From: a virus
Lineage: Duplodnaviria; Caudoviricetes
Virus record (IMG/VR): IMGVR_UViG_3300032226_000085
Location: 1-60,933 of that record
Strand: one strand, 5' to 3'
Length of the DNA: 60,933 bases
Shown: positions 1,725 through 60,933 of the stretch, in pieces
Numbering within the stretch: position 1 is the stretch's first letter
Layout of the letters: each line of letters begins with the position of its first letter
Made by a program: the position numbers and the translations under genes
Notes under the pieces: model-generated
What the model saw: only the letters and a program-made list of their open reading frames with translations
The model's database searches: none
What the model was told of the DNA's origin: nothing

Positions 1725-1741
1725 GGGGTCATGTTGACCCC
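1725..1741 (+). promoter_or_regulatory. GGTCA-N3-TGACC hairpin/palindrome with T-tract (terminator-like)
   Basis: GGGGTCA-TGT-TGACCCC then TTTTT, 10 nt after the peptidase stop. Confidence 0.75.
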
Positions 1742-8834: not shown

Positions 8835-8845
8835 AGGAGAAGCAA

Positions 8846-10081: not shown

Positions 10082-10083
10082 TT

Positions 10084-10565: not shown

Positions 10566-10574
10566 GGGAAGTAA

Positions 10575-12137: not shown

Positions 12138-12144
12138 AAGGGGG

Positions 12145-12188
12145 TTGCAAACGAAACTGGTTTTAGGTAATCTGTCAAACGCTAGACA
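12145..12188 (+). promoter_or_regulatory. Putative sigma70 promoter with overlapping TGTC-N8-GACA operator
   Basis: TTGCAA-17 nt-TAATCT; TGTCAAACGCTAGACA at 12173-12188. Confidence 0.55.
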
Positions 12189-12206
12189 AAATAATAGGAG
12201 AAGCAA

Positions 12207-12611
12207 ATGAATGAAACCATCATTCCGCTGGACAAGCTTGCGAAAATTTATCGCAAGATCAAGATGGAGATCGACACGCTGACGCAAGAGTACGACACTA
12301 AGTTGGAAGCACTCAAAGCGCAGCAAGACGAACTTCGTTTCGCAATGAAAGACCAGATGAAGGCGCTTGGCGTCAAGTCGGTCAACACCACCTTCGGTAC
12401 CGTGTCATTGGTAAACAAAACCCGTTACAACACACAGGACTGGGACTCGTTTAAGAAGTTCATCATCGAGCACGATGTCGTAGACCTGTTGGAGAAACGG
12501 ATTGCGCAAACCAATATGGCGCGGTTCCTTGAAGAAAATCCGGCGCTTGTACCACCCGGATTAAACGCATACACGGACTTCGAAGTTCGTGTGACTAAAC
12601 CTACTAAGTGA
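12207..12611 (+). CDS. Coiled-coil replication/recombination-module protein
   Basis: N-terminal coiled coil, T.FGTV, DWDSF..FI, LLEKRI, PPGLN. Confidence 0.7.
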   Translation: MNETIIPLDKLAKIYRKIKMEIDTLTQEYDTKLEALKAQQDELRFAMKDQMKALGVKSVNTTFGTVSLVNKTRYNTQDWDSFKKFIIEHDVVDLLEKRIAQTNMARFLEENPALVPPGLNAYTDFEVRVTKPTK

Positions 12612-12619
12612 GAACTCAT

Positions 12620-13567
12620 ATGTCCGATCTAACTGTATTCAATCCCGCACAAGTACCCGACTTCGCACGTAACAACGAACTGTCTGAAACCGCACTGGCT
12701 CTTACCGGTGGTGGCACTGGTGGTAGCGTCAAGCGCATCTCGATCAAAGGCGGCGTGTTCCGTCTGGTGTCGGGCGGTAAAGAAATTGCTGCTATCGAAG
12801 ACCGTCACCTCGATGTGATTATCGTCAAGGCCGCACCCAAGGTCAGCCGTATTTTTTACGCTGGTGCATACGATAAGGATGCTGCCGCTGCTGCGCCTGA
12901 CTGCTGGTCTAACGATGGTGAGAAGCCTGATGCAGGTGCGAGAAACAGACAAGCGCAGACCTGCTTGTCGTGCCCACAGAACCAAGCCGGTTCGGGTCAG
13001 GGTAATAGCCGCGCTTGCCGTTATCAGCAGCGTCTGGCTGTGGTGTTGGAGAACAATCCCGGTGGTGATGTCATGCAGTTGACGTTGCCAGCGACATCGG
13101 TGTTCGGTAAGGAAGACGGCGACAAGCGCCCGCTTCAGGCATTTGCGCGTCATCTGGCCTTGTCCAACCCACCGATCAACCCAGAGCAGATCGTTACCCG
13201 CATGAAGTTCGATACCAAAGCGGAGTCGCCCAAGCTGTTCTTTACCCCGGTTCGTTGGTTGACCAATGATGAGTACGCCGTGGTCAAGACGCAAGCTGAC
13301 AGCACCGATGCAAGCCGTGCTGTTGTGATGACTGTTGCTCAGTCGGATGGCGTCAAGAGTGCTCCTGCACTGCCGGGTAAAGCGCCTGCGGTTGAAGCCG
13401 AAGAGGAAGCACCAGCACCCAAGGCAAAGACCACCAAGAAGAAAGCCGAAATCGTTGACGAAGACGAGTCCGAGCCAGAAGTTCGCAAGGAATCATCAAA
13501 GCCGTCTGGTGTGCCTGAGAAGAAGGGCAAGCTGGCCGACATCGTGGCTGACTGGGACGACGAGTAA
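12620..13567 (+). CDS. Putative ssDNA-binding/annealing protein
   Basis: RISIKGGVF, PDCWSNDG, CLSCPQN..GS...ACR; flexible linker and acidic aromatic tail ADWDDE; replication context. Confidence 0.65.
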   Translation: MSDLTVFNPAQVPDFARNNELSETALALTGGGTGGSVKRISIKGGVFRLVSGGKEIAAIEDRHLDVIIVKAAPKVSRIFYAGAYDKDAAAAAPDCWSNDGEKPDAGARNRQAQTCLSCPQNQAGSGQGNSRACRYQQRLAVVLENNPGGDVMQLTLPATSVFGKEDGDKRPLQAFARHLALSNPPINPEQIVTRMKFDTKAESPKLFFTPVRWLTNDEYAVVKTQADSTDASRAVVMTVAQSDGVKSAPALPGKAPAVEAEEEAPAPKAKTTKKKAEIVDEDESEPEVRKESSKPSGVPEKKGKLADIVADWDDE

Positions 13568-13578
13568 TTAAAGAAAAG

Positions 13579-13670
13579 CCCAGCCGGAGGTGGCGCTAAT
13601 AACACCGGCAGCGGGGGCTGGGTATCCTTTCGGAAAGTTTCATTTCATTACTCAGTGACCCCGCACTTTT
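13579..13670 (+). ncRNA. Structured intergenic RNA element (candidate)
   Basis: Stems GCCGG/CCGGC, GCGGGG/CCCCGC, CTGGGTA/TACTCAG; alternative CCCAGCC/GGCTGGG; short T-tract. Confidence 0.5.
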
Positions 13671-13688
13671 AACCACACATAAAATCCA

Positions 13689-13970
13689 ATGGCCTACTCT
13701 CAAAAAATTATAGATGCCGTTGCAGCAGCGCCTAAAAGTCCGGGCAACCAGCTTGGGCGCTGGGCTATCTATTTAGAATTTCCTGTGACCAAGATTGCAT
13801 ACGTGCTTGGCGTGACACGACAGACTGTTTACAACTGGATGATGGGTAAGACCGAAGTGTTTGTCGGCTACCAAGATCGTGTTGAGCTAATGCTAAAGAT
13901 TATGCAAGCATCCAAAACCGCTGATGAAGCATGGAGAAGAATATGCAAAGAATACAACCTCAAGCCTTGA
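13689..13970 (+). CDS. Cro/XRE-like helix-turn-helix protein
   Basis: VTKIAYVLGVTRQTVYNWMMG HTH signature. Confidence 0.8.
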   Translation: MAYSQKIIDAVAAAPKSPGNQLGRWAIYLEFPVTKIAYVLGVTRQTVYNWMMGKTEVFVGYQDRVELMLKIMQASKTADEAWRRICKEYNLKP

Positions 13971-14140
13971 CCGACAAAGAACTGGTGTCCGCATCGCTCT
14001 TGATGTTTGAACCAGACACAGGTATGCCCCTCGCCTTTCAAAAAGAAGTCATTCGTCGTTTAGCTTCGTATGTAGAAGATGCACGAATCAACATGACCGA
14101 CTACAAAGCCGCGCCTGACCAGCTTCCGCTGTTCGATTAA
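13943..14140 (+). CDS. Hypothetical protein (65 aa)
   Basis: RBS GGAG before ATG 13943; ends QLPLFD, resembling a beta-clamp-binding motif (QLxLF). Confidence 0.6.
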   Translation: MQRIQPQALTDKELVSASLLMFEPDTGMPLAFQKEVIRRLASYVEDARINMTDYKAAPDQLPLFD

Positions 14141-14157
14141 AACAATAAAGGATACCT

Positions 14158-17124: not shown

Positions 17125-17272
17125 GCGTGGGCAGGGGTTCTTTGTTCCTTGTCTGGACCCGGAGGCCGTCATACAAGACGGCCTCCGTAAGGCTTTAGTC
17201 CACCGCATCTTCCACGCCAAGGCCAGCGTGGGGGTAAAGAACGGCCTTACTGGGGTCTGGTTTCACCTGTAA
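17081..17272 (+). CDS. Small hypothetical protein (63 aa)
   Basis: YPWSQLKRGQGFFVPC...GVWF; last gene of the + arm. Confidence 0.6.
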   Translation: MKKTLRVTYPWSQLKRGQGFFVPCLDPEAVIQDGLRKALVHRIFHAKASVGVKNGLTGVWFHL

Positions 17273-20200
17273 AGGATAAGAACTCTCGCGCAATCAAGAC
17301 TTGCTGCTCATCAATATCTTTTAGCATTTCGTCTTTTTCTGCGCGGGTAAGGTCGGCGGCAATTATGTTGCGGCGCATGGTGGCCAGCTTACCAAGCTGC
17401 TCTCGAACCCGCCCTGAGAATTGAGCACTAGCAAGTTTGTTTTCATACTTGTTCAGTAAGGCATCGGCCTCTTTATCTTTACCTTCCTCCAACAAGCTGT
17501 TGTAAGTACCTTGCACCTGTTGAATCTCCAGTATGCGTTCGTACGCAGCATCAAGCGTTCCTCTACCTTCAACCGGCTGGAACAACCCGCCGATGAACGG
17601 CATCTTGCTGGTCTTCATAGTGGGCTTCTCAACGGCGCTGGCTTCCGTGTTCAGGATAGGATTAGCCAGTGAGGCAATCGCCACACCCAGACCACCGGTG
17701 TAACCACGAATCAGGTAGTCAATCTTGATTGGAGTCAAACCAAAATTACCGGTGACGCTACCCAACATTTTGGCAATCTCAGTGGTCGTATCTCTCGAAC
17801 GCTCGCCCGGCATCATGGTGGTCAACTCACGCTTGGACTCAATGTCACCACCAAAGAACGAGCGGCCAAGGATAACTTCGGTTGCAGGCTTGATTGCCGC
17901 TGGCAATGCAAATGGGTTGGACATGCCAAGCAGCTTGCCCATACCCTTGGTGATATCGCTTGCACGTTCGTCCTGCGCGGCAGTGTTGAACACCGCTTCT
18001 GGCAACGCCTTGAACAGATAGCCCAATTCAAACGGGATAGGTATCCGCATTGGCTCATCAGAGAACGGCGTGTACACAAACCAGTTACCCAGACGCTCTT
18101 CAGGCTTGGCGCGTTTGTATGCCTCGTCGTCCTCCATCGCCGCAGCGTAGGCCAGTGTGCCCGCAGCCAACAGCAAACCACGGGTATAGAGCTTCTGACG
18201 AATCTTCAGTTGTTCGCTGTACGGCATCTTGCCTGTGAACGCCCGGTACAACACATCCAGACCTTGGATCTGCGCGTTGAAGAACGGGATGACTGTGGAC
18301 ATCATCTGCATCGAAGGCGACAAACCGCGACGACTAAAGTTCATCGACTCCAGTGTACGCATAAACGCCTGCATCTCAGACATACCCTTGGCCAGCGAGT
18401 CCTTGTAGATCACAGCACGGGTTGCAGCATCGCCTTGCATGGCCAGCGCATCGGCCTTCATCATCAGCTTAGTCCAGCCCGAACGACCAAGACTCATATC
18501 ACGCATAGCTTTGGCCATGTCCTGCTCGTCGCCTGTCATGACGTTGCTGGAGATAGCGCCACCCTGCATCAACTCAATTTCTTCTTTGCTGCGTCCGGCC
18601 ACCATCTTGCTTAGTTCAACAAACGAATTAAGAACCGGGACGCCGTCTGTACCCGTAGTAAACCAAGCGGTCAGTGGATCACGGATAGCCTGACGCACCG
18701 CGTAGGCTGGGTTGCGAGTAATAAACTTTCTCAAAACGTTTGCGGGCATACCCATGACTTTGATCGCCATTGGGATGGTTGTCTTAATACCTTCCATACC
18801 CTTAACGATCAACTCTGCCGGGATGCCGTACATGTCTGAGTCGATGACGGCAAAGTTATCTTCACCCTTAACCTTGTAGCGAACCGTATTCGGACCTTGC
18901 GGTCCAGCGCCTTTGCCAATCTTACTTGCAATACCCAGACGGCCAAGCAACATCACGTTGTCTTTCATCATCTGGTTACGCAACCCCATGCGTGTCAGAA
19001 CAAACGCGTTCTGCGCCGAGCTTGTAAAGATCGGAAGAATCTGTGAGTTGTCGCCAACAAGCTCGTGCAACATCGGCTCGTCTTTCATGTTGGCAATACG
19101 GATGGGGCGCTCTTTGTCCACCATCAACTGCAACTCACCACCCTGCACACGATAGAACGGTACGTAGTCCGTTGCCTTCAACTCTGCTGCTTTCTGTTGA
19201 GACAGATAGCCTGTCTGCGCAGCAAAATCAACCAAGCCGTTGTTGTACTCTTTGTAAATCTTAGCCGCGTCTTCAAACGCAGCGCGGGCTTTGTCGTTGC
19301 CCTTCAACTCTTCCATCAGCCTGTTGTAGTCCTGCTCAACAGAGGCGGGGTTATCAAAGTTCAGTTTGTTCCAGCCCACCTGTTTGGCGCGTTTACCTGC
19401 CGTGTAGATGGTAAACATATGTTCCAACTCGGTGCTGTTCTTAATGCCTGACTTCTCCAACGCCTGAGCCACCTTCACCATGCTGGCACCGGGTGCGCTC
19501 TTATAAACAAACTCCATACCACGCTTGGTTACTTGCTTAACCAGTGCCAGTGGGCCGTTAGTCAGCGCCTGTGTAGCAAAAGCATTAGCCTGCTGGCCGA
19601 AGCGCAGGTAGTAACCAGCCTGCTCGGCTTCCAAGTCGGACACAACGCCAGCGTCCAGACCTTTTTTAATAGCCGCATCAAGCGCCGCGTATTGGTCAAC
19701 AAACTGCACACGGCCAGACAGACCAAGGAAGTTGCTACGAAGATTATCGACGACACCTTTCTGGCTACCAACAAAAGAACCGCCGTAGCGACTCCCATCA
19801 CGTTTACTACGGAAAGCCATCACACCGCCTGCTGCCCGATAAGGACCGACAGTACGATCATTAAATGCTTTGTTGGCCAGCTTGATTGCATAGTACACAT
19901 CAGACGTAGACAGTCTGGCCGCATTCTCAAAACCCATCTGGCGCAACGAAGCGCGCATCATGCCAACAAACTCTTTTAACCAACGGCTGGCTTTTTGACG
20001 AAAGTTTTCCGTAATACGCTTTTCTGCTGTATACGCAATGATCTCGCGCAGGGCTTGCAACTTCTGCACTTCAGGAGAAAACTCCTGCTTCTTAGCAAAT
20101 GCTGCCGCAGCAACAGCCTCACGTACCAACGGCTCACCACCCAGTGTTTCGGCCAGCTTAATTACATCGGTTTTGTTTGCGTACTGCTGCAACCTATCCA

Positions 20201-23200
20201 TGCCGATCACGGTATCAACGCCGTAGTGGCCAATCATTTCGTGGAACAGCGTTGCTTCTAAATCAGCAACGCTACTGTGCTGGTCGCCCACCACAACGAT
20301 AGTGCCGTCAGACAACACCACACCCTTAAACGAAGTGCCTTCTTCGTAACCGCCCGCAACTAAGCGTTCCAGAATATCCGGCTTTATGCCTGCCAGCGTT
20401 GGGGAGTACACAAGGTTAACGCCCTTGGGAAGATTAGATAGCGTGGTGGCAATCAGCGCCCGTGCTTTAGCAGCATCAACAACTGTGTCAGAGGCTTCAC
20501 CTGTACGGAAAACCATGCCCGAATCACCGGGGCGAATACCTTCTTCTTTTCTAGCGGCCAACTCTATACGTGAGCTTGCTGTAGAAGGCGTTGCCGGAAC
20601 TGTCTTTGTGACCTTGCGCGTAACTTCAGGTGCAGCTTGGCGTGTGATGTCCCCGGCAGTAGTAGCCTTGCCGCGCACAAAGTCCATAGTGGCATCGGGA
20701 TTGTCTGGCACGATAAACAGCTTTGCGCCATCCATCTGCGTTTCGTAGTTATCCAGCAGGTACTTGTACGTTTCCTTGTCTACGTTGATGCAACCAAACG
20801 AATAGCGGGAGTCCTCGGCGCTATCTTTGGCCAGTGCTTTCTGACGCGCTTGCGCATCTGACATCTTGGTGTACACGGAGTGGAACAACGTGATGGAGTA
20901 CTTGCCCTCAATCGCTTTATCCAACACAAAGACCTTACCAAAGTCGTAGTCGCCAGCAGTAACCGCTTCGCCTTTGCTGCGCGTAGCATCGCGCAAGCCC
21001 ATGTTAAACAAACCGGCAGGAGTAAATCGGTTTGCCTTTACGTCTGTGTTGCCCTTGTAGTAGTCGCCAGTTTGCAAACCGAGCAGTACCTTCTTGTCAA
21101 GGATAGGCTGGCCGTTAGAATCAAACACAAACACGCGAGCATTTGGTTTGTCGGTCAAAATAAACAGTTTGTTGTTTTTCTTCAAGTCCGCTTGTATTGC
21201 GGGCATGATGTTGGCGTACGCTTGTTGTGCACCGGAGGACATCTTTGATTGCACAGATTCAGGCACCTTGGCCAACACCTGCTCAACCGTAGTCACGTTC
21301 TGAGGAATCGCTACCTGATAACCGGGGCCAATATAGTTTGGGTTAAGGATGATCGCAGCGCCAACTATTGCCGCTTGCAGTTTACGAATGATGTTACGAA
21401 TCGAAGCGGATACAGACTGCGCACCCTTGACGGCAAACTTGACAATGTCTTCACGAACCTTGGCAAGGAACCCCGCGCTATTAACTGGCTCCCCGTAATG
21501 CTCCGCAAGTGTCTCTCTTTCTTGTGTAGAGAGCCGAGTAGAAAGTATGTCTACTATCAACGTCTTTGTTTTTGTATCTTGTGCCGAGGGTTCCCCTCCG
21601 CGAAACGCAAGACCTGCGTCATCTTTAAAATCGTTCTTAATTTGCTTGAGTGTTTCCGCAGTGTCGTACTCAGCTAGTGTTTGTATGTCTGATTTCTTTT
21701 TCTCACGAGCAGAGACTTCGGATAGATCTGCCTTGAACCTTGCTTGCCGCGCAGCAGACGCAGCTTGGCTCTCAGCAGAGCCGGTCGTCATGGTACTTAG
21801 TTTTGGCAAACGGCGGGTAGCTTGCGTAGTACGCTTAGACTTAATCTCTTGCTTGCCAGCGCCTAGAGCCTCACGCATGACATCCATTTGCTCACGCAAC
21901 AACGCTTTGTATTCAGGCGTCTTCTTACCCAGCGAAAGCGCCGTGTCGTTCAGATTGGTTTCGGCTTCTTTAATGAAAGCCCTAAGTTGCGAAGAGTTAT
22001 CGCCGTGTTTTTTGCGAATATCCTCAAGCTTCTTTTGTGCTTTCTTTGCCAGTGCCTGATACGCATCTTCTTCGTAGCCAAGTTCCAGCGCTGCCTTACG
22101 CATACTTTCTGATGCTTCGGCTTCTTTACGTACGTCGCCTTCGTTAATACGCTGGGCAGTTTTAGCTTCACGAGAAGTCAGTTTGCTTGCAATAAAAGCA
22201 CGAACTTCTTTGCTGCCGTCGCCATGTTCATCGATCAGTTCTTTAAGACGTTCCTGCGCTTTTGCACTTAACTTGGCGACGGTCTCAGGTGCCGTGCGTT
22301 TGCTGGCAAGGAAGCTCTTAACTTCTTTACTGTCTTCACCAAACTTTTTAATCAGTTTAGTGGCTTGCGTTTGGTCTTTTGCATTTAATCCCGCCAGTAT
22401 GTTTGGCCGTTCAGGCGCAAAGCTGCCTGTAGTGTCGTACAGCTTATCCATCTCCGCACGAATTTCACGCTTCACCGCTTCCATGCGGTCCATGATCTTA
22501 GAGTACTCGGCTTCTTCTTTGGCTATGGCGGCTGTCGTACGTGCTTCATACTTACCACTTGCCAGCTTCTCTTTAAGCTCGGAGATACGAACGCGTGAGT
22601 CATGCGCCATCTGAAGCAACGATCTCTTTGCGTTACCGATAGGCTTAGTTATTTTCTGCCGCAAATCGGCAATTTTTTCTGCAACCGTATCGTACACATA
22701 CAGTTCTTTACGAACTTTGTTGACCGTAGCTTCGTACACATCGTATGTACGCTCACGACGAAGAACGCCTTTTATGTCCCCTTTAAGCAGTTCGTATACC
22801 TGCTCTCTTGGGGACAGCTTTGATTTGCTGGCTTCGGCAGCAGCTTTGTCTGCGGCTTCTCTTGCACGACGCAAGTTCTCCAGCGTCTTGGTGTCGTTGT
22901 TCCAGATAGCCGCGTTTAGTATGCTGGACTGCTCTTCAATATCCCGCGTTGCCAGCCGCCGTGCTTTACTGTCTGGGTCTTGCAGATTGGCTAGTTCATT
23001 CTGCAACTGCTCAATCTCTTGGCCTTTTTCAAGTAGCGCACGTGTGTATTTCTGGTAGTTATACGCATCAATAATCAGCTTACCTTCTTTATCACGCAGC
23101 GTAGTCTGCGCAATTTCCGAAAGCTCTTTGTTACGCTGCGCTAATACTTTTTCGCGCTGCTCTATTGCTGCCGATGTTTTCTTATCTGCGGCGGGGGCTT

Positions 23201-25004
23201 CAGCTTCTTTAACAACTTCTGTCGCCTGCGGCGCTGCCTCTTCCGGGAACATCGGAATGGTGTCGCCCACAGGCACGGCATTAATACGCAGGGCTTGGCG
23301 TTGCTGTTCGGCAGTTGCTTGCTGCTCGGCTTGTTGTGCTTTCAGTTCGTCCAGTTTGGTGGCCAAGCTCGGCATAGCAGCAAAGTCGCCAGTCTCAGCA
23401 GCGTCGGATAGTTTCTTCTGCGCGGCCTTAATCTGTTTATCAAGAGCTTTCTGTGCTTTTGCTACGTCAGTCTCGAATACTTCTGGGGCTTTGGTTACAC
23501 CGCCCAACTGTTCAATCTGTGCGCCAAGTTCCTGAAGCTGTGTTTGCTGTTGCTGGTACGCAGGTACAAGTTCGTTGATCGCGGCAGTGTCGCCCTTGGC
23601 GGCGGCTTCCTGCATTTGCGTCTCAAACGGGGTTAAAGCGGTTTGCAATTTCCGATACTGGTCCATCATTTGTTGTACGTTACTTTGTACAACTGGCGCA
23701 GCAGCTTCTACTGCTGCCTCGGCTGGAGCAGCGGGGCGTTCTGGTAGTTGCGATGTGCGCAGGGCACGAGCCTCAAGTTTTACTCCGTCATACTCTTTTT
23801 TAAGCGGTTTGAATTCTTCAATCTGCTCTTTGTATTGGCGTTGCAGCCCAGCATAAATATCCTGCTGGCCTTCGGTTGCGTCCTTGCCGGGCTTAGACGC
23901 CTTTAGTTGCTGCTGTGTTTCAGTCAGCGCGGCCTTTGCGGCATCGTGACGGTCTGCAATACCCAGTATGTATTCAGGCTTGGCTTTCTCCGCCGCTTCT
24001 GCTTCACGCAGTTCTTTAGCTTTCTTTGCGGCTTCAAGCGCATCGCCGCGAGTGACTTCGTCTTTTGCCAAACCAACTTCTGCCCTGCGGCCCACGCCAC
24101 CAAACGGACCGCCAAAGAGCGCAGCGCCGTAGGCGGCTTCGCTGTATTCCTTCAGCGCGTTATTATCCATCAGGGGCATGTTGGCTTGCCAACGCTCCAG
24201 CATCTGCTGCCCAACTTCAGTAGGGATTTCAGCCAGCAAACCTTTGGCGGTGCCTTTGGCAATTGATGTTGCCAGACGTTCTTCAGCCAGCTTGCGGGCT
24301 GCGGGGGACACCAGTGCCTGCGCACCTTCTTTTTCTGCAATGCCCAGTATGCGGCTCATCAGCTTGCCGCCTAGCGGCACCACCATAGCGGTGTACTCCA
24401 GACCGGCTTGGCCTGCGGCAGACAGTACAGTCTTACCCGGATCTTGTGGAAGTCCTTCAGCAGCACGTCGTTCAGCGCCCGTACCATAGGCTTGGAAAGC
24501 CAGAGGCAAAATAGCGCCAGCAATACCACCAGCCAACGCACCGCCGGGACCCAGAGGTGCACCAGCAATAGCGCCCAAACGACCGCCAGCAAAAGCAGTT
24601 CCCAGTTGTGGAAGCTGCTCTGCAATAAAGCTTGGCGCTTGACTTAATACTTCTCCCGCAGCGGGAAAGAAGCCTTCTTTTGCGTACTTCTCTTTGACCT
24701 TATCGAGGCTTAGTACAGACGGGGTCTTTGCTTCTAATTCACGAGCGCGAGTCAGGCCAGCCTGCGCAGCTTCTTCAACACCAAACGGAGTTTCAACCGC
24801 CGTACGTATAGAAGACCCAAGCTTCTTGGCTCCAGCAATACCGCTTTCGATAATGCCGGGAGTGCGTTCTGGCTGGGCAGAGGGTTGTTGTTGTTGTTGC
24901 ATTCGCGCTTGGATAGCGCCGATGATCTGCTCTCGCGTGGCATTTGGCGGCCCATCGATAGCGTATGTTTTACCGTCCGGCCCTTGAATGCTGTACGTTG
25001 GCAT
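17247..25004 (-). CDS. Giant polyvalent internal virion/ejection protein (2585 aa) with L,D-transpeptidase-like, HExxxH metallopeptidase-like and LPD38-like domains
   Basis: Position after the other internal proteins; TPAG...FHSVY...SFGCINV; HEMIGHYG; C-terminal IPFFNAQIQG, IPIPFELG, PIKIDYLIRGYTGGLG. Confidence 0.8.
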   Translation of the reverse strand: MPTYSIQGPDGKTYAIDGPPNATREQIIGAIQARMQQQQQPSAQPERTPGIIESGIAGAKKLGSSIRTAVETPFGVEEAAQAGLTRARELEAKTPSVLSLDKVKEKYAKEGFFPAAGEVLSQAPSFIAEQLPQLGTAFAGGRLGAIAGAPLGPGGALAGGIAGAILPLAFQAYGTGAERRAAEGLPQDPGKTVLSAAGQAGLEYTAMVVPLGGKLMSRILGIAEKEGAQALVSPAARKLAEERLATSIAKGTAKGLLAEIPTEVGQQMLERWQANMPLMDNNALKEYSEAAYGAALFGGPFGGVGRRAEVGLAKDEVTRGDALEAAKKAKELREAEAAEKAKPEYILGIADRHDAAKAALTETQQQLKASKPGKDATEGQQDIYAGLQRQYKEQIEEFKPLKKEYDGVKLEARALRTSQLPERPAAPAEAAVEAAAPVVQSNVQQMMDQYRKLQTALTPFETQMQEAAAKGDTAAINELVPAYQQQQTQLQELGAQIEQLGGVTKAPEVFETDVAKAQKALDKQIKAAQKKLSDAAETGDFAAMPSLATKLDELKAQQAEQQATAEQQRQALRINAVPVGDTIPMFPEEAAPQATEVVKEAEAPAADKKTSAAIEQREKVLAQRNKELSEIAQTTLRDKEGKLIIDAYNYQKYTRALLEKGQEIEQLQNELANLQDPDSKARRLATRDIEEQSSILNAAIWNNDTKTLENLRRAREAADKAAAEASKSKLSPREQVYELLKGDIKGVLRRERTYDVYEATVNKVRKELYVYDTVAEKIADLRQKITKPIGNAKRSLLQMAHDSRVRISELKEKLASGKYEARTTAAIAKEEAEYSKIMDRMEAVKREIRAEMDKLYDTTGSFAPERPNILAGLNAKDQTQATKLIKKFGEDSKEVKSFLASKRTAPETVAKLSAKAQERLKELIDEHGDGSKEVRAFIASKLTSREAKTAQRINEGDVRKEAEASESMRKAALELGYEEDAYQALAKKAQKKLEDIRKKHGDNSSQLRAFIKEAETNLNDTALSLGKKTPEYKALLREQMDVMREALGAGKQEIKSKRTTQATRRLPKLSTMTTGSAESQAASAARQARFKADLSEVSAREKKKSDIQTLAEYDTAETLKQIKNDFKDDAGLAFRGGEPSAQDTKTKTLIVDILSTRLSTQERETLAEHYGEPVNSAGFLAKVREDIVKFAVKGAQSVSASIRNIIRKLQAAIVGAAIILNPNYIGPGYQVAIPQNVTTVEQVLAKVPESVQSKMSSGAQQAYANIMPAIQADLKKNNKLFILTDKPNARVFVFDSNGQPILDKKVLLGLQTGDYYKGNTDVKANRFTPAGLFNMGLRDATRSKGEAVTAGDYDFGKVFVLDKAIEGKYSITLFHSVYTKMSDAQARQKALAKDSAEDSRYSFGCINVDKETYKYLLDNYETQMDGAKLFIVPDNPDATMDFVRGKATTAGDITRQAAPEVTRKVTKTVPATPSTASSRIELAARKEEGIRPGDSGMVFRTGEASDTVVDAAKARALIATTLSNLPKGVNLVYSPTLAGIKPDILERLVAGGYEEGTSFKGVVLSDGTIVVVGDQHSSVADLEATLFHEMIGHYGVDTVIGMDRLQQYANKTDVIKLAETLGGEPLVREAVAAAAFAKKQEFSPEVQKLQALREIIAYTAEKRITENFRQKASRWLKEFVGMMRASLRQMGFENAARLSTSDVYYAIKLANKAFNDRTVGPYRAAGGVMAFRSKRDGSRYGGSFVGSQKGVVDNLRSNFLGLSGRVQFVDQYAALDAAIKKGLDAGVVSDLEAEQAGYYLRFGQQANAFATQALTNGPLALVKQVTKRGMEFVYKSAPGASMVKVAQALEKSGIKNSTELEHMFTIYTAGKRAKQVGWNKLNFDNPASVEQDYNRLMEELKGNDKARAAFEDAAKIYKEYNNGLVDFAAQTGYLSQQKAAELKATDYVPFYRVQGGELQLMVDKERPIRIANMKDEPMLHELVGDNSQILPIFTSSAQNAFVLTRMGLRNQMMKDNVMLLGRLGIASKIGKGAGPQGPNTVRYKVKGEDNFAVIDSDMYGIPAELIVKGMEGIKTTIPMAIKVMGMPANVLRKFITRNPAYAVRQAIRDPLTAWFTTGTDGVPVLNSFVELSKMVAGRSKEEIELMQGGAISSNVMTGDEQDMAKAMRDMSLGRSGWTKLMMKADALAMQGDAATRAVIYKDSLAKGMSEMQAFMRTLESMNFSRRGLSPSMQMMSTVIPFFNAQIQGLDVLYRAFTGKMPYSEQLKIRQKLYTRGLLLAAGTLAYAAAMEDDEAYKRAKPEERLGNWFVYTPFSDEPMRIPIPFELGYLFKALPEAVFNTAAQDERASDITKGMGKLLGMSNPFALPAAIKPATEVILGRSFFGGDIESKRELTTMMPGERSRDTTTEIAKMLGSVTGNFGLTPIKIDYLIRGYTGGLGVAIASLANPILNTEASAVEKPTMKTSKMPFIGGLFQPVEGRGTLDAAYERILEIQQVQGTYNSLLEEGKDKEADALLNKYENKLASAQFSGRVREQLGKLATMRRNIIAADLTRAEKDEMLKDIDEQQVLIAREFLSFTGETRPQ

Positions 25005-55820: not shown

Positions 55821-56403
55821 TGTCTACACTTTGACATTCTATTTCTTCGACTTCTCTGACATCCGTGATGTCCACGATCTTGGCGAACTTACCCAGCTTT
55901 TCCTTGATCCGCGCTTCCAGTTCAGCGTCGGACAGTTCTGTCTTCTTAATCTCGATCTTCTCGGTGAACAGCCCCACTTCCGTGACCTTGCCCAGAAGTG
56001 CCAGTGCTTTAAGCCGTACGCTGGCTGTTGGGTGTTTGGTTTCTTCCAGCAGTTGGGCAACAGCATAGCCGCGAATCTCTTTGGCTTGATTGATAAACTC
56101 CCAATCGTATGCCGTTAGCATTCCAACAAGGTGTTGTACCGCAGCGGGGGTTTTGATTTCAGCCAATGCAGCGCGAGAGTGTTCGTCGGGCTGGGCTGTT
56201 ACGATATTGGTGAAGGCCGTTCTGGCTGCTTGGGACTCCAACTCATTGGCGAGTTCATCGCCTGCTGCGCCCAGACTCTTTAACCACTCGGCGGTATCTA
56301 CCTTGGCATCTACCAAGTCTACGGGGGCAGTCTTTTCAAACGTGACGAAGCCAGTGGAGTCATCATCCACATCGGGGGTAAATTCTATTAAGTGATCCAA
56401 CAT
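55798..56403 (-). CDS. Putative terminase small subunit
   Basis: Directly upstream of TerL; RLKALALLGKVTEVGLF; likely start ATG 56403. Confidence 0.6.
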   Translation of the reverse strand: MLDHLIEFTPDVDDDSTGFVTFEKTAPVDLVDAKVDTAEWLKSLGAAGDELANELESQAARTAFTNIVTAQPDEHSRAALAEIKTPAAVQHLVGMLTAYDWEFINQAKEIRGYAVAQLLEETKHPTASVRLKALALLGKVTEVGLFTEKIEIKKTELSDAELEARIKEKLGKFAKIVDITDVREVEEIECQSVDNEPSTES

Positions 56404-56414
56404 GCGCAGGTCCC

Positions 56415-56444
56415 TTGCGTACCTCGTTGCCCGGAGTGTATAGT
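56415..56444 (+). promoter_or_regulatory. Putative sigma70 promoter for candidate sRNA
   Basis: TTGCGT-18 nt-TATAGT. Confidence 0.55.
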
Positions 56445-56450
56445 GTGTCT

Positions 56451-56541
56451 TGCAAGTGCGCAAGTGGCAACTCTTCGCGTTTGCTTCTCCTTTGCTCGTG
56501 GTGAGCATATTTTGCCCTCGGTTTTGCCGGGGGCTTTTTTT
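56451..56541 (+). ncRNA. Candidate ~90-nt sRNA with anti-Shine-Dalgarno seed
   Basis: Upstream promoter, three hairpins, terminal GCCCTCGG/CCGGGGGC plus T7; seed CGTTTGCTTCTCCTTTG. Confidence 0.6.
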
Positions 56542-56550
56542 CGGCTGTGT

Positions 56551-56568
56551 TTGTCTAAGGTTAGACAA
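56551..56568. promoter_or_regulatory. Palindromic operator-like site TTGTCTAA-GG-TTAGACAA
   Basis: Perfect 8-bp arms; adjacent to a - strand TTGACA (56575-56580). Confidence 0.55.
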
Positions 56569-56824
56569 GTATATTGTCAATTTTTTAATAATAGTGGGGG
56601 GTTAAGTTTACAGTCGGTTGGAATTAAGTTGTCAGGGACGAGGTTTAAGTTTGCAGCGGCAAAAAACGCACTTTGCTGGCTACTTTCGTTTTTTGGGTAT
56701 TGTGTTGCTAAGTGAATAACGGAAATACTCGGGATGGTTATGGAACAGTGTTATATGCGGAGCGCCGCCGTGTTGTCAAAAAGGGGTTGTGGGGGTACGG
56801 TAGGGTCGAGATACTGCCTTTTTC

Positions 56825-56839
56825 GGGTCAAATTGACCC
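56825..56839 (+). promoter_or_regulatory. GGTCA-N3-TGACC palindrome
   Basis: GGGTCA-AAT-TGACCC upstream of first early gene. Confidence 0.7.
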
Positions 56840-56934
56840 CGTATCCGTCGATCAAACGGCGCACTCCGGATAATGGGTCTCGTCAATGGCACTTGCCCTT
56901 GGCAAACACAATCAACCCAATGAAAGGAAACACC

Positions 56935-57312
56935 ATGAACAAGCAAACACAATCCAAAGTCAACACACTCGTATCCAAGTTTCTTGATGCATCTGACGAC
57001 TTCGTCATTAGCTTGCACTCCGAGGGGCTTGATACGCCTGAACTTCAGCGGCCTTACGTCATCGTAGCGGTATGCGCGAAGTACACCGAGGGCAAGGGCT
57101 GGAATGAATCGTCAACGGGCAAGGTCATGCTCGACTCGAAGCACGAGCGGTACGAGTTTCTGAAAACCAAAGTGCGCGATGTCATGGCAGCACTCAAGGG
57201 CGAGACGCGTAGCGCGTCATCTGGCAAGACTGACCCTGTTGATGCGATCATCAAGGCGTTCAACAAGCTCGATGCGAAGCAGCAGCGTGCTGTCATCAAG
57301 GCTCTCGCTTGA
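56935..57312 (+). CDS. Early hypothetical protein (125 aa)
   Basis: RBS AAAGGA before ATG 56935. Confidence 0.75.
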   Translation: MNKQTQSKVNTLVSKFLDASDDFVISLHSEGLDTPELQRPYVIVAVCAKYTEGKGWNESSTGKVMLDSKHERYEFLKTKVRDVMAALKGETRSASSGKTDPVDAIIKAFNKLDAKQQRAVIKALA

Positions 57313-57315
57313 TTT

Positions 57316-57332
57316 CGGGTCAACGTGACCCG
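57316..57332 (+). promoter_or_regulatory. GGTCA-N3-TGACC palindrome with T-tract
   Basis: CGGGTCA-ACG-TGACCCG-TTTTTT. Confidence 0.75.
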
Positions 57333-57440
57333 TTTTTTCCACGGGGCATCGGCGTGAGGTCTGGCCGGTGTTCCGTTATCTGTCTAAACCAGACTTCATT
57401 GTTCTATTCAACGCAACAATCAACCCAAAGGAGCATCATC

Positions 57441-57638
57441 ATGAAATTCGCACATATCCCAAAAGCAACGTACTCAATCGGGCAAGTCATCACCGTACAC
57501 GGCAAGCCCATGCGTGTGGAAAGCTACACCCACACCGGAAAGAACGTAGTCGTACATTCACTAGAGGGCGCACCCCGTTTTGAGAGGATTGTCTGTATCT
57601 GTACAGACGCGCAAGCCATTGAAGCAATTACAAACTAA
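57441..57638 (+). CDS. Early hypothetical protein (65 aa)
   Basis: RBS AAAGGAG before ATG 57441. Confidence 0.7.
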   Translation: MKFAHIPKATYSIGQVITVHGKPMRVESYTHTGKNVVVHSLEGAPRFERIVCICTDAQAIEAITN

Positions 57639-57645
57639 CCAAAAA

Positions 57646-57662
57646 CGGGTCAGCCTGACCCG
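57646..57662 (+). promoter_or_regulatory. GGTCA-N3-TGACC palindrome
   Basis: CGGGTCA-GCC-TGACCCG. Confidence 0.75.
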
Positions 57663-57686
57663 ATAACCACCCAAAGGAGCATCACC

Positions 57687-57956
57687 ATGAAAGCTACTCA
57701 ATCCATCTTCTTCGTTGAAGTTACCGACACCTACGGCGGCGATGCCAATTACTGCTGGGTACATCGCTTCAAAGTCCACGCCACCACCTTCAGAGGTGCT
57801 ATCCGCAAGGTTAGCCGCGAGATGGGCTACTCAACCAAACTCAACGGCAACTACGGCGACATGGCACGGTACGACTTCAAGGGCGCAGCCATCTGCGCTT
57901 TCGTCATGCCCTACGAAGATCAAGCAGAGAACTACCTGCGCGTTGTATCTCTCTAA
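57687..57956 (+). CDS. Early hypothetical protein (89 aa)
   Basis: RBS AAAGGAG; EVTDTYGGDANYCWV. Confidence 0.75.
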   Translation: MKATQSIFFVEVTDTYGGDANYCWVHRFKVHATTFRGAIRKVSREMGYSTKLNGNYGDMARYDFKGAAICAFVMPYEDQAENYLRVVSL

Positions 57957-57964
57957 ACAAAAAT

Positions 57965-57981
57965 CCGGTCAACCTGACCGG
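57965..57981 (+). promoter_or_regulatory. GGTCA-N3-TGACC palindrome
   Basis: CCGGTCA-ACC-TGACCGG. Confidence 0.75.
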
Positions 57982-58003
57982 AAAACCTGAAAGGAACTAC
58001 CCC

Positions 58004-58174
58004 ATGAATACCTTACGTCTGGCCGACATCCTCGGCATCAGCATTGCCACCATCTGCGTAGTGCTCACCTTGCCCGAATTACTGGAAAACCTTGGGCTGC
58101 TCACCTTCATTGGCTACACCTTCGGCGTAGTCATCATCACCAACAAGATCAACGGCATCTTCAGAGGAGAATGA
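58004..58174 (+). CDS. Small two-TM membrane protein (56 aa)
   Basis: RBS AAAGGA; two hydrophobic segments; below ORF-track cutoff. Confidence 0.65.
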   Translation: MNTLRLADILGISIATICVVLTLPELLENLGLLTFIGYTFGVVIITNKINGIFRGE

Positions 58175-58176
58175 CC

Positions 58177-58383
58177 ATGCGACTCATCAAAGAAACCACA
58201 GGCGAAGAAGTTAAGACAGGCGATGTAGTCCATTGCTTCAGAGGCAAGGCGGCCATCGTCACAAGCTGGGCGCAGCCCGACCACACCGGCAGCACAGGGC
58301 GAGTACACATCAAAGAGATAGGCGAGAGAGGCTTTACAGGCGAGTACTACCCGTCTGTGTACGGCCTGAAATGGGTTGAATGA
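58177..58383 (+). CDS. Early hypothetical protein (68 aa)
   Basis: RBS GAGGAG; TGEEVKTGDVV..FRG...STGRV...EYYPSVYGLKW. Confidence 0.7.
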   Translation: MRLIKETTGEEVKTGDVVHCFRGKAAIVTSWAQPDHTGSTGRVHIKEIGERGFTGEYYPSVYGLKWVE

Positions 58384-58400
58384 AGACTACTACACTTTTA

Positions 58401-58417
58401 GGGGTCAAAATGACCCC
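58401..58417 (+). promoter_or_regulatory. GGTCA-N3-TGACC palindrome with T-tract
   Basis: GGGGTCA-AAA-TGACCCC-TTTTT. Confidence 0.75.
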
Positions 58418-58427
58418 TTTTTCCACC

Positions 58428-58715
58428 TATCCATGACTACTACAAGTGGACAAGAAAAAAGACAGCGAAAACGTAGCGCCATCAAGGCGTATCCTAAAAA
58501 CAGGCACATCTATCTATCTATTTAAATATATATATATATATAGGAGAGTATTTATATGTGGACACTTGTTTGTAAAAACTTTTGTTCTTGTTTGTAAGTT
58601 CGGGCTATACTGTTTCTACAAACAGATATATAAACGCCCCAGTTTCTGCTTTCACCCGCACACAGACTGGCATACGACTGTCCAAAAACTGGTCCACTTG
58701 TAGTAGTCATGGATA
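58428..58715. repeat. 24-bp perfect inverted repeat flanking an AT-rich core with (TA)n; putative replication origin
   Basis: TATCCATGACTACTACAAGTGGAC 58428-58451 versus its reverse complement at 58692-58715. Confidence 0.75.
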
Positions 58716-58751
58716 CTTGCTTGGATACCAACATCAAAAAGGGTAGTAGTC

Positions 58752-59513
58752 ATGGACAAATGGATGTACACCGCCGTACAGCGCAAGATCGACAGCGCAT
58801 TACTACGCAAATTTCCAGACCAACACCATCTGAGAAACAACCTGCGGTCAGAGATACGCAACGTCAAGAGCCAACGCCGAGCCGAGAAGATCACGGCAAC
58901 ACATCGGAAAAAACTCTGGGCTGCACTACTGCGCGACTTAAATTATGAGTACAACAACATCAGGCAAGGCATCAAGTACGCCAAGACCCAAACGCAGCCT
59001 GAAAGACTACACGCCTTTGAGAGTTACTTACTTGTCCTCGACAAGGTACGCGACGAGATCGAAGCAGCACAGGCAAACCCCGAAGTCCCCAAGCCAACAC
59101 CGAGTGCTTTCAGCAAATGGCACAACGCCAAGGGCAAACGGCAGATACCGAACAACGGCATCCATTGGACAGACTGGGTTCCCGCAAGAATAAAAGCACA
59201 GGTCACAGACCTGTTCAATGCCATACCGCACACGCCCAAGGCCAAGCGCAAGATACCGTTTCAAAGAACACAACGCCCGATCAAGAACAACCCAGCACTC
59301 ACCCGCCTGATAAAGCGTACGGAAAAAGAACTTAGTTATGTGAAGCAGGAATTAGACATCGCCCCAACCAACCAAACCATACGCCTGAAGTACAACCAGA
59401 TGCACCAAGCCTTAGTCCGTATGCGTGAGATGAAACCAAGCGAAGCCGTACCACACACGTGGCATGGCTTGTACAAGTTCGAGAGCAGTAGCAGTAAACT
59501 AGATGTAGTATAA
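58752..59513 (+). CDS. Basic hypothetical protein (253 aa)
   Basis: ORF track; HWTDWVP, K.KIPFQR, VPHTWHGL. Confidence 0.75.
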   Translation: MDKWMYTAVQRKIDSALLRKFPDQHHLRNNLRSEIRNVKSQRRAEKITATHRKKLWAALLRDLNYEYNNIRQGIKYAKTQTQPERLHAFESYLLVLDKVRDEIEAAQANPEVPKPTPSAFSKWHNAKGKRQIPNNGIHWTDWVPARIKAQVTDLFNAIPHTPKAKRKIPFQRTQRPIKNNPALTRLIKRTEKELSYVKQELDIAPTNQTIRLKYNQMHQALVRMREMKPSEAVPHTWHGLYKFESSSSKLDVV

Positions 59514-59536
59514 TCTAGGTGTAGTAAGCAGCAAAA

Positions 59537-59553
59537 CGGGTCAGCCTGACCCG
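59537..59553 (+). promoter_or_regulatory. GGTCA-N3-TGACC palindrome
   Basis: CGGGTCA-GCC-TGACCCG. Confidence 0.75.
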
Positions 59554-59581
59554 AAATTCAACCAACTGAAAGGAGCAACAA

Positions 59582-59905
59582 ATGACTGACCAAAACCAAC
59601 CCAAGTTCTACACCGTGGCCATCTACATGGAGGACAAGCTTTACGGTGGACCGGAAGAAGGCGGGTGGTATTACCACGGAGGAGAGTTATGCATGGAGCC
59701 AGAGGCAGCGCAGTTCCTGCGAGGGTTTAACAACGAGGAAGAAGCAGCAGAGTACGCATCGGAACTCAACGCCGAGGTAATGCCCGTGTGGAACCACGAC
59801 AGACCAGAGATCAGTAGCGCCTTATCCGAGGGGCGCTACGTTGCCATATACGACGAGGGTATGCCCAAGCCGTACTTCCCAGAAGAAACACCACACTACG
59901 AGTAA
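59582..59905 (+). CDS. Early acidic hypothetical protein (107 aa)
   Basis: RBS AAAGGAG; YGGPEEGGWYY...P.ETPHYE. Confidence 0.75.
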   Translation: MTDQNQPKFYTVAIYMEDKLYGGPEEGGWYYHGGELCMEPEAAQFLRGFNNEEEAAEYASELNAEVMPVWNHDRPEISSALSEGRYVAIYDEGMPKPYFPEETPHYE

Positions 59906-59912
59906 ACAAAAA

Positions 59913-59929
59913 CGGGTCGGCCTGACCCG
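59913..59929 (+). promoter_or_regulatory. GGTCR-N3-TGACC palindrome (G.T variant)
   Basis: CGGGTCG-GCC-TGACCCG. Confidence 0.7.
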
Positions 59930-59976
59930 TTAATCAGGCCACTCACTTAACGCAACACAACCCGAAAGGAAACACC

Positions 59977-60933
59977 ATGATTGACAATGACTATTGCGGC
60001 TATGCCCGCTGGGAATGGATGATGTCTCTGGCCAACGTGCTGGAGGAACGCGCAAGGGTAGGTAACTACATCTTGAGCAACGGCTGGGATGCCATGCCCG
60101 CTGAATACAAGGTGAACTACCCTGACCCCGACCCTAAGAACTACCGTACTTGGTTCAAACGTGAGACTGACAACGCACCGATGCACCCTGCTATCCGTGA
60201 AGCAGTACGCCAAGCACCACCCGCAAACTGGCACTTGCTTGTCCTTGAGCACCCCCATGCATCACAGAATGACCCGAGCCGTATCGCATACACAAGGTCA
60301 GATGAGCACGGCTACGCTGACAGGCAGACGGTGACATCACTAGGCAAGTACTTGACGCGACACTTCCCTGCCCTGCGTGACCATCAGATACGCGACATCG
60401 TGATGCGTCACGGTGCTAGTCGGTTCGAGATGTGGGACACCGTCGAGAAGATCGTGCAGTCTGTACAAGATGGGCCACACTCATGTATGCGGTGGGAGAG
60501 ATACAACAAGGACACCGACGACACCCACCCCTACGAGGCGTACGACCCTGTGTATGGGTGGCGGGCAGCGGTGCGGCTCGACGCTAACAGCATCATCACG
60601 GCACGGTGCTTGGTCAACGTCGAGGAGATGACGTTTGTTCGGTCTTACACACGCAAAGATGGCGAGTACTCGCACAGCGACGAGGCCATCGAGGTGTGGC
60701 TGCGTGACCAAGGCTATACCAAGAACTGTAGCTGGTCGGGTCTCAAGATGAAGCGCATCACCAAGGGTAGGCACAACGATGACTTCTGGGCGCCCTACCT
60801 TGACGGTGACTGCAAGAATGTGGCGGACTGCGGTGACTACTTATGTATTGACCACGATGGTGACTACGACTGCTCTCGTACGGATGGTCATGCAGACGGC
60901 TCATCGAACTACTCGTGTTGTGACTGCGGTGAA
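59977..60933 (+). CDS. 5' part of the join-spanning ~484-aa hypothetical protein
   Basis: RBS AAAGGA; open frame MIDNDY...GKYLTRHF...HSCM...ARCLV...FVRSY...APYLDG continuing into 1-621; missed by the ORF track. Confidence 0.85.
   Translation, partial: MIDNDYCGYARWEWMMSLANVLEERARVGNYILSNGWDAMPAEYKVNYPDPDPKNYRTWFKRETDNAPMHPAIREAVRQAPPANWHLLVLEHPHASQNDPSRIAYTRSDEHGYADRQTVTSLGKYLTRHFPALRDHQIRDIVMRHGASRFEMWDTVEKIVQSVQDGPHSCMRWERYNKDTDDTHPYEAYDPVYGWRAAVRLDANSIITARCLVNVEEMTFVRSYTRKDGEYSHSDEAIEVWLRDQGYTKNCSWSGLKMKRITKGRHNDDFWAPYLDGDCKNVADCGDYLCIDHDGDYDCSRTDGHADGSSNYSCCDCGE
60811..60933. repeat. Terminal direct repeat copy 2
   Basis: Identical to 1-123. Confidence 0.95.

Follow-up and report, generated by a model that had tools for sequence, protein, structure and literature searches.

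A recurrent GGTCA/TGACC hairpin follows early genes of an uncultured tailed phage and may act as an RNA-level linker module

Results

We analyzed the IMG/VR virus record IMGVR_UViG_3300032226_000085 (Duplodnaviria; Caudoviricetes), whose whole length of 60,933 bases is called the window here, for a short palindrome, GGTCA-N3-TGACC, that recurs between its early genes. The window is a complete virus record with a circular assembly, positions 1-126 being identical to 60808-60933. The plus arm starts with the first early gene at 56935 and runs across the join to 17124, with small genes without assigned function followed by those for DNA polymerase A, helicases, nucleases and a primase-helicase. 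On the minus arm, which descends from 56580 to 17247, are genes for terminase, portal, capsid, tail, lysis and ejection proteins, together with one for a 2585-aa LPD38 "polyvalent" protein. The phage is apparently lytic. A DNA-level similarity search against deposited phages gave no match, and the nearest isolates by DNA polymerase were Rhizobium RHph_TM3_14A-type and Pseudomonas KPP25-type phages, at about 31% identity.

The exact motif, GGTCANNNTGACC, occurs seven times in the window, at 1727, 56826, 57318, 57648, 57967, 58403 and 59539. Dinucleotide-preserving shuffles gave a mean of 0.07 matches and a maximum of 1, and none of 100 reached 7. Allowing one mismatch, for which about 1.75 matches are expected by chance, contributed two extra sites, 59915 (GGTCG...TGACC) and 55134 (GGTCATAATGACA). 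We rejected 55134 as a family member; it is conserved as coding sequence in two relatives and, given its location within the minus-strand terminase gene and its lack of G-C outer pairs, we treat it as a chance match. Because the window ends overlap, copy 1727 sits across the join, and the eight copies fall within about 5.8 kb of the 60.8-kb genome. They are confined to the early arm, and every other intergenic space of the genome is without them. A first-pass annotation made from the sequence alone had listed the same eight sites, seven exact and one variant, with coordinates 1-2 nt lower because the outer pair was included, and had seen none elsewhere. The genome-wide scan agrees on both points, and the relatives described below likewise keep their copies clustered.

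The features of the locus are collected in Table 1. Seven copies come just after a gene, with the stop codon ending 5-25 nt ahead of the core, and copy 0 (56826) precedes the first early gene, 97 nt upstream of its ATG at 56935; this arrangement, including the 1725 copy across the join, had been described correctly in the first pass. Copy 1 begins 3 nt past the stop of the first early gene and has orthologous copies in 11 of 11 aligned relatives. Copy 2 begins 7 nt past the stop of gene 57441-57638, and its end lies 24 nt upstream of the ATG that opens gene 57687-57956; copy 3 lies between the latter gene and 58004-58174. Copy 4, after 58171-58383, closes the small-gene block just ahead of a conserved non-coding region. 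Copy 6 lies 3' of 59582-59905 and 5' of the 483-aa gene, and its GGTCG variant is kept in 10 of 10 orthologous copies. Copy 7 is the best plus-strand terminator-like site in positions 1-18000 and abuts the ribosome-binding site of the next gene, so that the genes beyond it need read-through; 3' of this copy there is no space for a promoter ahead of them.

Table 1 Hairpins and early genes at the locus (stem, loop and tract as read on the strand given)
Feature	Coordinates	Strand	Description
Copy 0	56825..56839	+	6-bp stem, loop AAT; RNA fold -8.5 kcal/mol; T-tract upstream, tail on neither strand
Copy 1	57316..57332	+	Sense terminator-like; 7-bp stem, loop ACG, then T6; in the + strand terminator scan
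Second, longer hairpin	57341..57376	+	13 pairs, directly 3' of copy 1
Copy 2	57646..57662	+	Inverted class; A-tract before stem, loop GCC, no coding-strand T-tail; -10.9 kcal/mol
Copy 3	57964..57982	+	Inverted class; 8-bp stem, tcc/gga outer pairs, loop ACC; -12.5 kcal/mol
Copy 4	58400..58418	+	Sense terminator-like; loop AAA, then T5; -12.8 kcal/mol
Copy 5	59537..59553	+	Inverted class; loop GCC; between 58752-59513 and 59582-59905
Copy 6	59911..59931	+	Inverted class; GGTCG variant (G.U on + strand); core at 59915
Alternative hairpin B	59919..59940	+	7-bp stem, 8-nt loop; predicted minimum-energy RNA fold -16.8 kcal/mol
Copy 7	1725..1741	+	Sense terminator-like; loop TGT, then T5; -11.9 kcal/mol; follows peptidase-like gene 624-1715
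Early gene block punctuated by hairpins	56935..60807	+	Open reading frames
Early gene	56935-57312	+	125 aa, very conserved
Early gene	57441-57638	+	
Early gene	57687-57956	+	
Early gene	58004-58174	+	
Early gene	58171-58383	+	
Early gene	58752-59513	+	253 aa
Early gene	59582-59905	+	
Early gene	59977 across join to 621	+	483 aa
Gene following these	624-1715	+	
Gene following these	1761-1865	+	

To characterize the element, we aligned without gaps the copies of the window and of 14 related contigs, 71 in total and 63 of them distinct. Departures from the five otherwise constant inner pairs are limited to one GGGCA copy and to 9 rows with an A-to-G change in the 5' arm, which gives G.U on the plus strand. 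The outer positions change and still pair: in the 63 distinct sequences, the first outer position is always paired, as G-C (54) or C-G (9), and the second is C-G in 39, G-C in 18, G-U in 1 and something else in 5. Within the window alone, the outer arms are cg/cg, gg/cc or cc/gg, and the loop sequence varies between copies. The covariation score was 0.205 against 0.098 in shuffles and dropped to at most 0.05 once partners were slid; none of 500 shuffles reached 0.205, a count that is not a probability because the aligned copies are related to each other. The covarying outer pairs and the wobble-only changes in the core indicate that base pairing is selected, and the element is under selection as a hairpin. 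The fixed core and spacing, variable loop and covarying outer arms that the first-pass annotation had read from the window also characterize the wider alignment. The window elements are 15-19-nt perfect palindromes with stems of 6-8 bp and a 3-nt loop, and their RNA folding energies span -8.5 to -12.8 kcal/mol (z-scores, -2.1 to -5.5).

Two of the copies are accompanied by a further hairpin. At copy 6, the G.U pair on the plus strand had been recognized in the first pass, and a more stable alternative, hairpin B, also exists at the site. Since hairpin B recruits the copy 6 loop and 3' arm, only one of the two structures can form at a time. All 10 orthologues retain it, contig L024 with one compensatory double change, and the A-to-G change at 59915 gives hairpin B one extra G-C pair. 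This leaves two options: alternation between the folds, or a reading of the palindrome at another level. At the copies orthologous to 59539 in L024 (position 4448) and L028 (position 5014), a downstream TCAGGC is able to pair with the palindrome loop and 3' arm, so the arrangement is not unique to the 59915 site. The longer hairpin 3' of copy 1 keeps its consensus structure in 11 relatives, with double changes at 2 pairs; its role may be that of a tandem terminator or of a structured 5' leader.

We then examined the tracts beside the stems, counting an oligo-T when at least 5 T fell in the 10 nt after the stem on either strand. Such a tract lies directly 3' of the stem on one or both strands in 66 of the 71 copies (chance estimate, about 9%): on the sense strand only in 23, on both in 8 and on the antisense strand only, as an A-tract before the hairpin, in 35, leaving 5 with none. 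In the window, three of the eight copies are terminator-like in the sense direction with a coding-strand T-tract (57318, 58403 and 1727), four have the A-tract upstream and are terminator-like on the minus strand only (57648, 57967, 59539 and 59915), and one has neither (56826), in agreement with the three downstream T-tracts, four upstream A-tracts and the outer-arm types reported in the first pass. A terminator scan listed 57316 and 1725 on the plus strand and 57662, 57982, 59553 and 59931 on the minus strand. Read on the minus strand, the inverted copies resemble copy 57318 on the plus strand, that is, one unit in two orientations. Because the DNA is palindromic, either strand yields the same stem, and the side of the oligo-T sets the direction. 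Orthologues of copy 4 are bidirectional in 5 of 7 aligned relatives, with A5-6 upstream and T5 downstream. In the sense class, 18 of 20 stems start 3-9 nt past a called stop; in the inverted class, where 30 of 38 copies have a called upstream stop, 20 of these 30 do so. Most of the next start codons are 19-52 nt downstream.

A promoter scan of 56300-60933 found one promoter-like site (3.4 expected), on the minus strand at 58576-58547, and none at the hairpins, where reading by eye found none either. Sigma-54, extracytoplasmic function (ECF)-type, MerR-type and sigma-70 promoters with the hairpin as spacer were considered by eye, and none fits. A role as slippery site or read-through stimulator was excluded because the tract lies after the stop codon, and the stems are too short for RNase III sites to be likely. 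An Rfam search returned no match on the early hairpins. Two late terminators on the minus strand, at 47945-47926 (following the major capsid gene) and 47285-47266, have 8-pair stems with TTCG loops; as these are unrelated in stem sequence, the early hairpins constitute a distinct early-arm family. In the divergent region before the early arm, 56484-56545 forms a strong plus-strand terminator-like hairpin (9 pairs, then T7), and 56484-56542 gave sub-threshold Rfam scores to two Betaproteobacteria/Burkholderia small-RNA families (22.5-22.6 bits; cut-offs 49.5 and 50). By its sequence, this may be a small RNA gene or merely a terminator.

Next, we analyzed the conservation of the motif. It is present at orthologous sites in at least 15 related viral contigs of IMG/VR, which, like more distant phages of about 60 kb, have 5-9 clustered copies. 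Five longer related records carry 4-7 exact copies each, and in the complete related records (G001-G003) all exact copies lie inside 5-6.4 kb of a 63-66 kb record. Five more distant records, from phages of about 60 kb, carry 5-6 exact copies each, mostly within 3-6 kb; their first early proteins are 38-58% identical to that of the window. In these distant genomes the copies are homogenised, loops included, and often symmetric to one central base. A form of the motif with 16 specified bases matched 117 stretches in the viral collection. The flanked form, with 19 specified bases, had 4 matches when one genome per species was scanned for 185,579 bacterial and archaeal species; this is close to the number that we estimate for chance and indicates that the element is a phage feature rather than a host repeat. 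One of the four lies on a 15.7-kb contig of an Oxalobacteraceae metagenome-assembled genome, a weak hint at an Oxalobacteraceae host.

The first-pass annotation had also suggested that the hairpins may serve as gene-shuffling junctions. Gene content between the backbone genes (125-aa, 253-aa, 483-aa and peptidase-like) differs among 12 relatives, and an identical upstream gene and hairpin can be joined to differing downstream genes. Related-strain contigs from the same study as the window's likely source show several such differences. One lacks precisely the segment 59529-59909, which reaches from the A-tract ahead of one hairpin to that ahead of the following hairpin, so that one gene (59582) and one hairpin are gone; another is without 57957-58164, which holds copy 3 and the 58004 gene. 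Other joints or replacement ends in related strains fall at 56825, 58400 (a replacement end), 57670 and 57956, and one divergence begins directly after 56839. Contigs L015 and L018 carry an additional two-gene-plus-hairpin unit between a hairpin and the 57687-type gene. Overall, 192 of 965 alignment ends lie at most 30 nt from a hairpin, against 7.2% for random positions, a 2.8-fold enrichment. The exact hairpin-to-hairpin loss and the inserted unit support the suggested junction role; breaks at hairpin-less junctions as well (3.3 ends per junction against 4.6) limit it.

These breaks, together with the hairpin unit being present or absent on its own, also argue that the locus is not an integron-like array. 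Integron cassette arrays combine an integron integrase with long imperfect attC palindromes, and we found no tyrosine recombinase in 67 proteins (PHROGs) or in the Pfam scans; the elements here are short perfect palindromes.

Another possibility is that the element is a selfish or neutral palindromic repeat, similar to repetitive extragenic palindromic (REP) sequences or miniature inverted-repeat transposable elements (MITEs), that spreads within a tolerant region via recombination or template switching without a regulated function of its own. Its presence or absence as a unit, its occurrence in both orientations and the homogenised loops within distant genomes are compatible with such spread, and the phage encodes a PD-(D/E)XK exonuclease, a Holliday-junction resolvase and HNH endonucleases. 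However, orthologous sites are kept across the related contigs and the distant phages, the distance to the stop codon is fixed, and the rest of the intergenic space is empty. Repeats of the REP/RAYT (REP-associated tyrosine transposase) type have many genome-wide host copies and an HUH transposase, whereas here bacterial matches are at chance level, the copies are restricted to the early arm, and no HUH protein or other transposase was found. We therefore regard a selfish repeat as very unlikely.

To search for a dedicated reader of the element, we scanned the encoded proteins. PHROGs, Pfam and six-frame polymerase searches found no RNA polymerase, sigma factor, integrase or HUH enzyme, and dependence on host RNA polymerase and intrinsic signals is expected from the missing polymerase and sigma factor. 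No DNA-binding family was detected in the 32 plus-arm proteins or in the PHROGs scans, and no helix-turn-helix or RNA-binding family in the early proteins. The 93-aa (13689) and 204-aa (3518) proteins, named in the first pass as candidate binders, had no family match. Pfam gave no assignment to the early-block genes except a weak M28 peptidase match for 624-1715. The first early protein is at least 59% identical in the best 120 of 151 homologues, and each of the five distant phages encodes it. AlphaFold models of the 253-aa and 125-aa proteins reached predicted local distance difference test (pLDDT) values of 87 and 88.7, and Foldseek found no match for either at E≤0.001; for the 125-aa protein, the best VIA Z was 4.8. 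MarR-like rows (E 1.6-2.2) were too weak and were not taken as evidence.

In the 2585-aa virion-type protein (17247-25004, minus strand), an LPD38 domain lies at the C terminus and an HExxH motif near residue 1597, and a further stretch is weakly YkuD-like. Its gene occupies the position where N4 has its virion RNA polymerase, which is relevant to the possibility that a dedicated factor reads the folded hairpin, as RNA or extruded DNA: an antiterminator, a processing protein, or an unrecognised polymerase within this giant ejected protein that would use the inverted copies as N4-style hairpin promoters. As far as the available parts of PMC4496689 and PMC3715699 describe them, N4 promoters are alike in having a 5-7 bp stem, a 3-nt loop, a mixture of conserved and merely pairing bases, and a location near small early genes. 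All four inverted copies of the window have the template loop GGC or GGT, with an A 11 nt past the loop centre and 22-46 nt before the ATG, and the P2 site in the N4 sequence has equal spacing. The terminator-like copy 7, abutting the next ribosome-binding site, would fit antitermination control.

In contrast, no polymerase signal was obtained. Four Pfam families (PF21894, PF21769, PF21867 and PF21624) matched N4 gp50 at E 1e-22 to 1e-97 and left the 2585-aa protein unmatched even at E≤1; BLASTP against N4 gp50 gave a best E of 0.5, and a six-frame search found no PF00940 (T7-type) or PF21894 (N4-type) signal. The 2585-aa protein has 141 homologues, of which the best 120, 1437-3170 aa long and often on contigs of about 60 kb, contained no polymerase domain. 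An ESM Atlas search with its first 1300 residues returned only viral clusters without names. A cryptic polymerase fold in this protein is possible but unsupported. Moreover, template loops at the other copies are not conserved (ATT, TTT and ACA at 56826, 58403 and 1727, which lack the central purine of N4-type template loops), and the wobble is on the non-template strand. N4 promoters, according to the same partial sources, conserve the loop and the top of the stem, occur in three copies and need the virion polymerase, whereas the present phage has variable loops, eight copies and no detectable polymerase. The hairpin-promoter analogy of the first pass is thus not supported at the level of N4-type or T7-type polymerase domains, and a factor that reads the folded hairpin seems quite unlikely overall.

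Several other features lie beside the hairpins. The conserved non-coding region (58416-58751) between hairpin 58403 and the 253-aa gene has an alternating TA run at its centre. A long inverted repeat and recurring GGATAC/TATCC and ACTACTACA/TGTAGTAGT boxes surround this run, and the same boxes stand on both sides of the 253-aa gene (near 58385 and at 59505-59525). In sequence, this region looks like a replication origin or a complex control region. A 34-aa hydrophobic open reading frame (1761-1865) is placed precisely between two elements, namely the shared ribosome-binding site with its ATG downstream of hairpin 1727, and the next gene; since it is missing there in L001 and L002, it represents an insertion at the start codon. 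Two HNH endonuclease genes (5043-5543 and 6073-6864) lie just upstream of the DNA polymerase gene, and the former has no counterpart in the related locus L001, as expected for a mobile homing endonuclease.

Discussion

We favor, with evenly balanced confidence, the explanation that the hairpins are RNA-level stem-loop modules that serve as terminators, attenuators or insulators and secondarily as recombination linkers, a promoter-less variant of the promoter early stem-loop (PeSL) elements of T4-type phages. Each module would consist of a stop codon, an A- or T-tract, a G+C-rich stem of 7-8 bp closed by a loop of 3 nt, a leader rich in C and A, and a ribosome-binding site, and would act mainly in RNA made by host RNA polymerase. 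Copies 57318, 58403 and 1727 would be intrinsic terminators or attenuators for the coding strand, dividing the early arm into three units: the first gene; the small accessory-gene block; and the non-coding region with the 253-aa, 483-aa and peptidase-like genes. Genes past copy 1727 would be expressed by read-through. At 57648, 57967, 59539 and 59915 the unit is reversed, and the mRNA would carry a tail-less stem-loop 7-23 nt past the stop codon. These inverted copies would be inefficient at stopping sense transcription; they could shield the 3' end of the upstream cistron, keep the next ribosome-binding site unpaired, or stop antisense transcription. As repeated linkers of 30-50 nt, the modules would also be places where recombination adds, removes and exchanges small early genes.

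Several observations weigh against this explanation. The coding-strand U-tail is absent in four of the eight window copies, the inverted ones, and we found no conserved antisense promoter for which an antisense terminator at these copies would be useful. None of the 20 runs listed for the phage is an RNA run. Regarding the linker role, hairpin junctions have 4.57 alignment ends each (60 junctions) and hairpin-less ones 3.32 (62 junctions), a ratio of only about 1.4, and the unit of about 31 nt is by itself present or absent between the same two genes in L009 versus L014 and L018, which speaks against a special role as linker. Selection on pairing alone leaves the invariance of five stem pairs, in 71 copies and in distant phages too, unexplained, and likewise the extension of the palindrome into the loop, down to a 1-nt centre, in some distant genomes. 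The RNA at 59915 is predicted to favor hairpin B, yet the palindrome is kept there with covarying outer pairs. Finally, at several orthologous sites the outer arms are tcc/gga in L016 and L011 and cg/cg in other genomes; L016 and L011 also share a subtype of the first early protein, an association inseparable from shared ancestry. The core invariance, the homogenised distant copies and the concerted outer arms point, at the level of sequence, to a common reader or to exchange between copies.

Such a reader could be a dimeric regulator, for example the 125-aa early protein, an injected protein or a host factor, for which the palindrome would be a duplex operator and its hairpin potential a by-product. 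The regulator would shut off, roadblock or activate early transcription at each gene boundary, in the manner of stoperators or conserved inverted repeats. An invariant 5+5 bp core at fixed 3-bp spacing with a free centre has the form of dyad-symmetric half-sites, and symmetry reaching a single central base would be unusable by a hairpin. The palindrome retained at 59915, the concerted changes in L016 and L011 alongside their first-early-protein subtype, the confinement to the early arm and the unusual conservation of the first early protein also fit an operator. However, outer pairs that are G-C or C-G within one genome and asymmetric in none of 63 distinct copies fit pairing better than base reading, and an operator does not need the oligo-T that stands beside nearly every copy. 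No promoter overlaps the sites, no DNA-binding family was found in the early proteins, and none of the solved DNA-binding folds matches the models, both confident, of the 125-aa and 253-aa proteins. An operator is therefore unlikely in our assessment.

Known phage systems of this kind resemble the present one in part. Phage phiC31 is temperate with a known repressor, and its early region reportedly, in work by Ingham and colleagues from 1995, holds conserved inverted repeats and terminators that lack a poly-U; repeated dyad elements and tail-less hairpins between early genes would thus be common to both phages. Unlike phiC31 as so described, the present phage has no repressor, integrase or binder that we could find. 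Mycobacteriophage stoperators are present in many copies in short intergenic gaps and are asymmetric, genome-wide, in one orientation and bound by a prophage repressor. The present copies share with them the repeated short intergenic site, whereas they are palindromic and limited to the early arm of a phage that appears to be lytic.

The PeSL elements are the closest counterpart to the RNA-level modules that we favor. In the available parts of their descriptions (PMC2839356, PMC4122927), they are likewise short repeated cassettes between the stop of a small early gene and the next Shine-Dalgarno/ATG. They combine an A/T-rich stretch with a G+C-rich stem-loop and lie in gene-variable regions where gene insertions and deletions are bounded by two copies (PMC2839356, in the part available). 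Further features of PeSLs are a stable stem-loop that can terminate or attenuate transcription and mini-circles that arise by recombination between copies; in the present phage, the stem-loops are stable and three of eight have a sense U-tract. PeSLs, as presented in those parts, carry a sigma-70-like early promoter with -35, -10 and AT-rich upstream sequence, whereas the hairpin units described here lack a -35/-10 pair; the hairpins also differ by their 5-bp core, invariant across distant phages, by their two orientations and by a length of about 30-50 nt rather than about 100. The comparison with PeSLs, first drawn in the first-pass annotation, therefore applies to position, stem-loop and shuffling, and fails for the promoter.

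Phage phiKZ offers a second parallel. According to the accessible portion of PMC10914365, a single motif is common to 61 of its terminators, and 9% of the phage terminators mapped lie antisense to genes, so many terminators of one phage can have a single stem-loop sequence, some of them antisense. Judged by that portion, phiKZ differs in having its own polymerases and a genome-wide motif, whereas the present phage has eight early-arm copies, half without a sense U-tract, and other stems in its late region.

The sequence family, the selection for pairing, the two tract classes, the clustering, the conservation and the breakpoints at the copies are direct observations, and the terminator, stabilizing and insulating roles, as well as the reason why the inner 5 bp never change, are inferred. 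The element can be used as a simple sequence tag to recognize the early arm in a widespread uncultured freshwater phage group. It may also extend regulatory gene-shuffling linker cassettes beyond T4-type myoviruses, here in a promoter-less form with a strictly conserved stem and two orientations. Improbable as we judge it, a dedicated system is conceivable in which a conserved factor reads the folded GGTCA/TGACC hairpin on either strand and times early genes across this clade of phages of about 60 kb. Candidates for that factor are the first early protein (125 aa, a fold orphan) and a portion of the giant ejected protein, and its mode of action could be antitermination, transcript processing or hairpin-dependent initiation. 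If a specific reader exists, it would represent a new early-gene control system in phages that rely on host polymerase.

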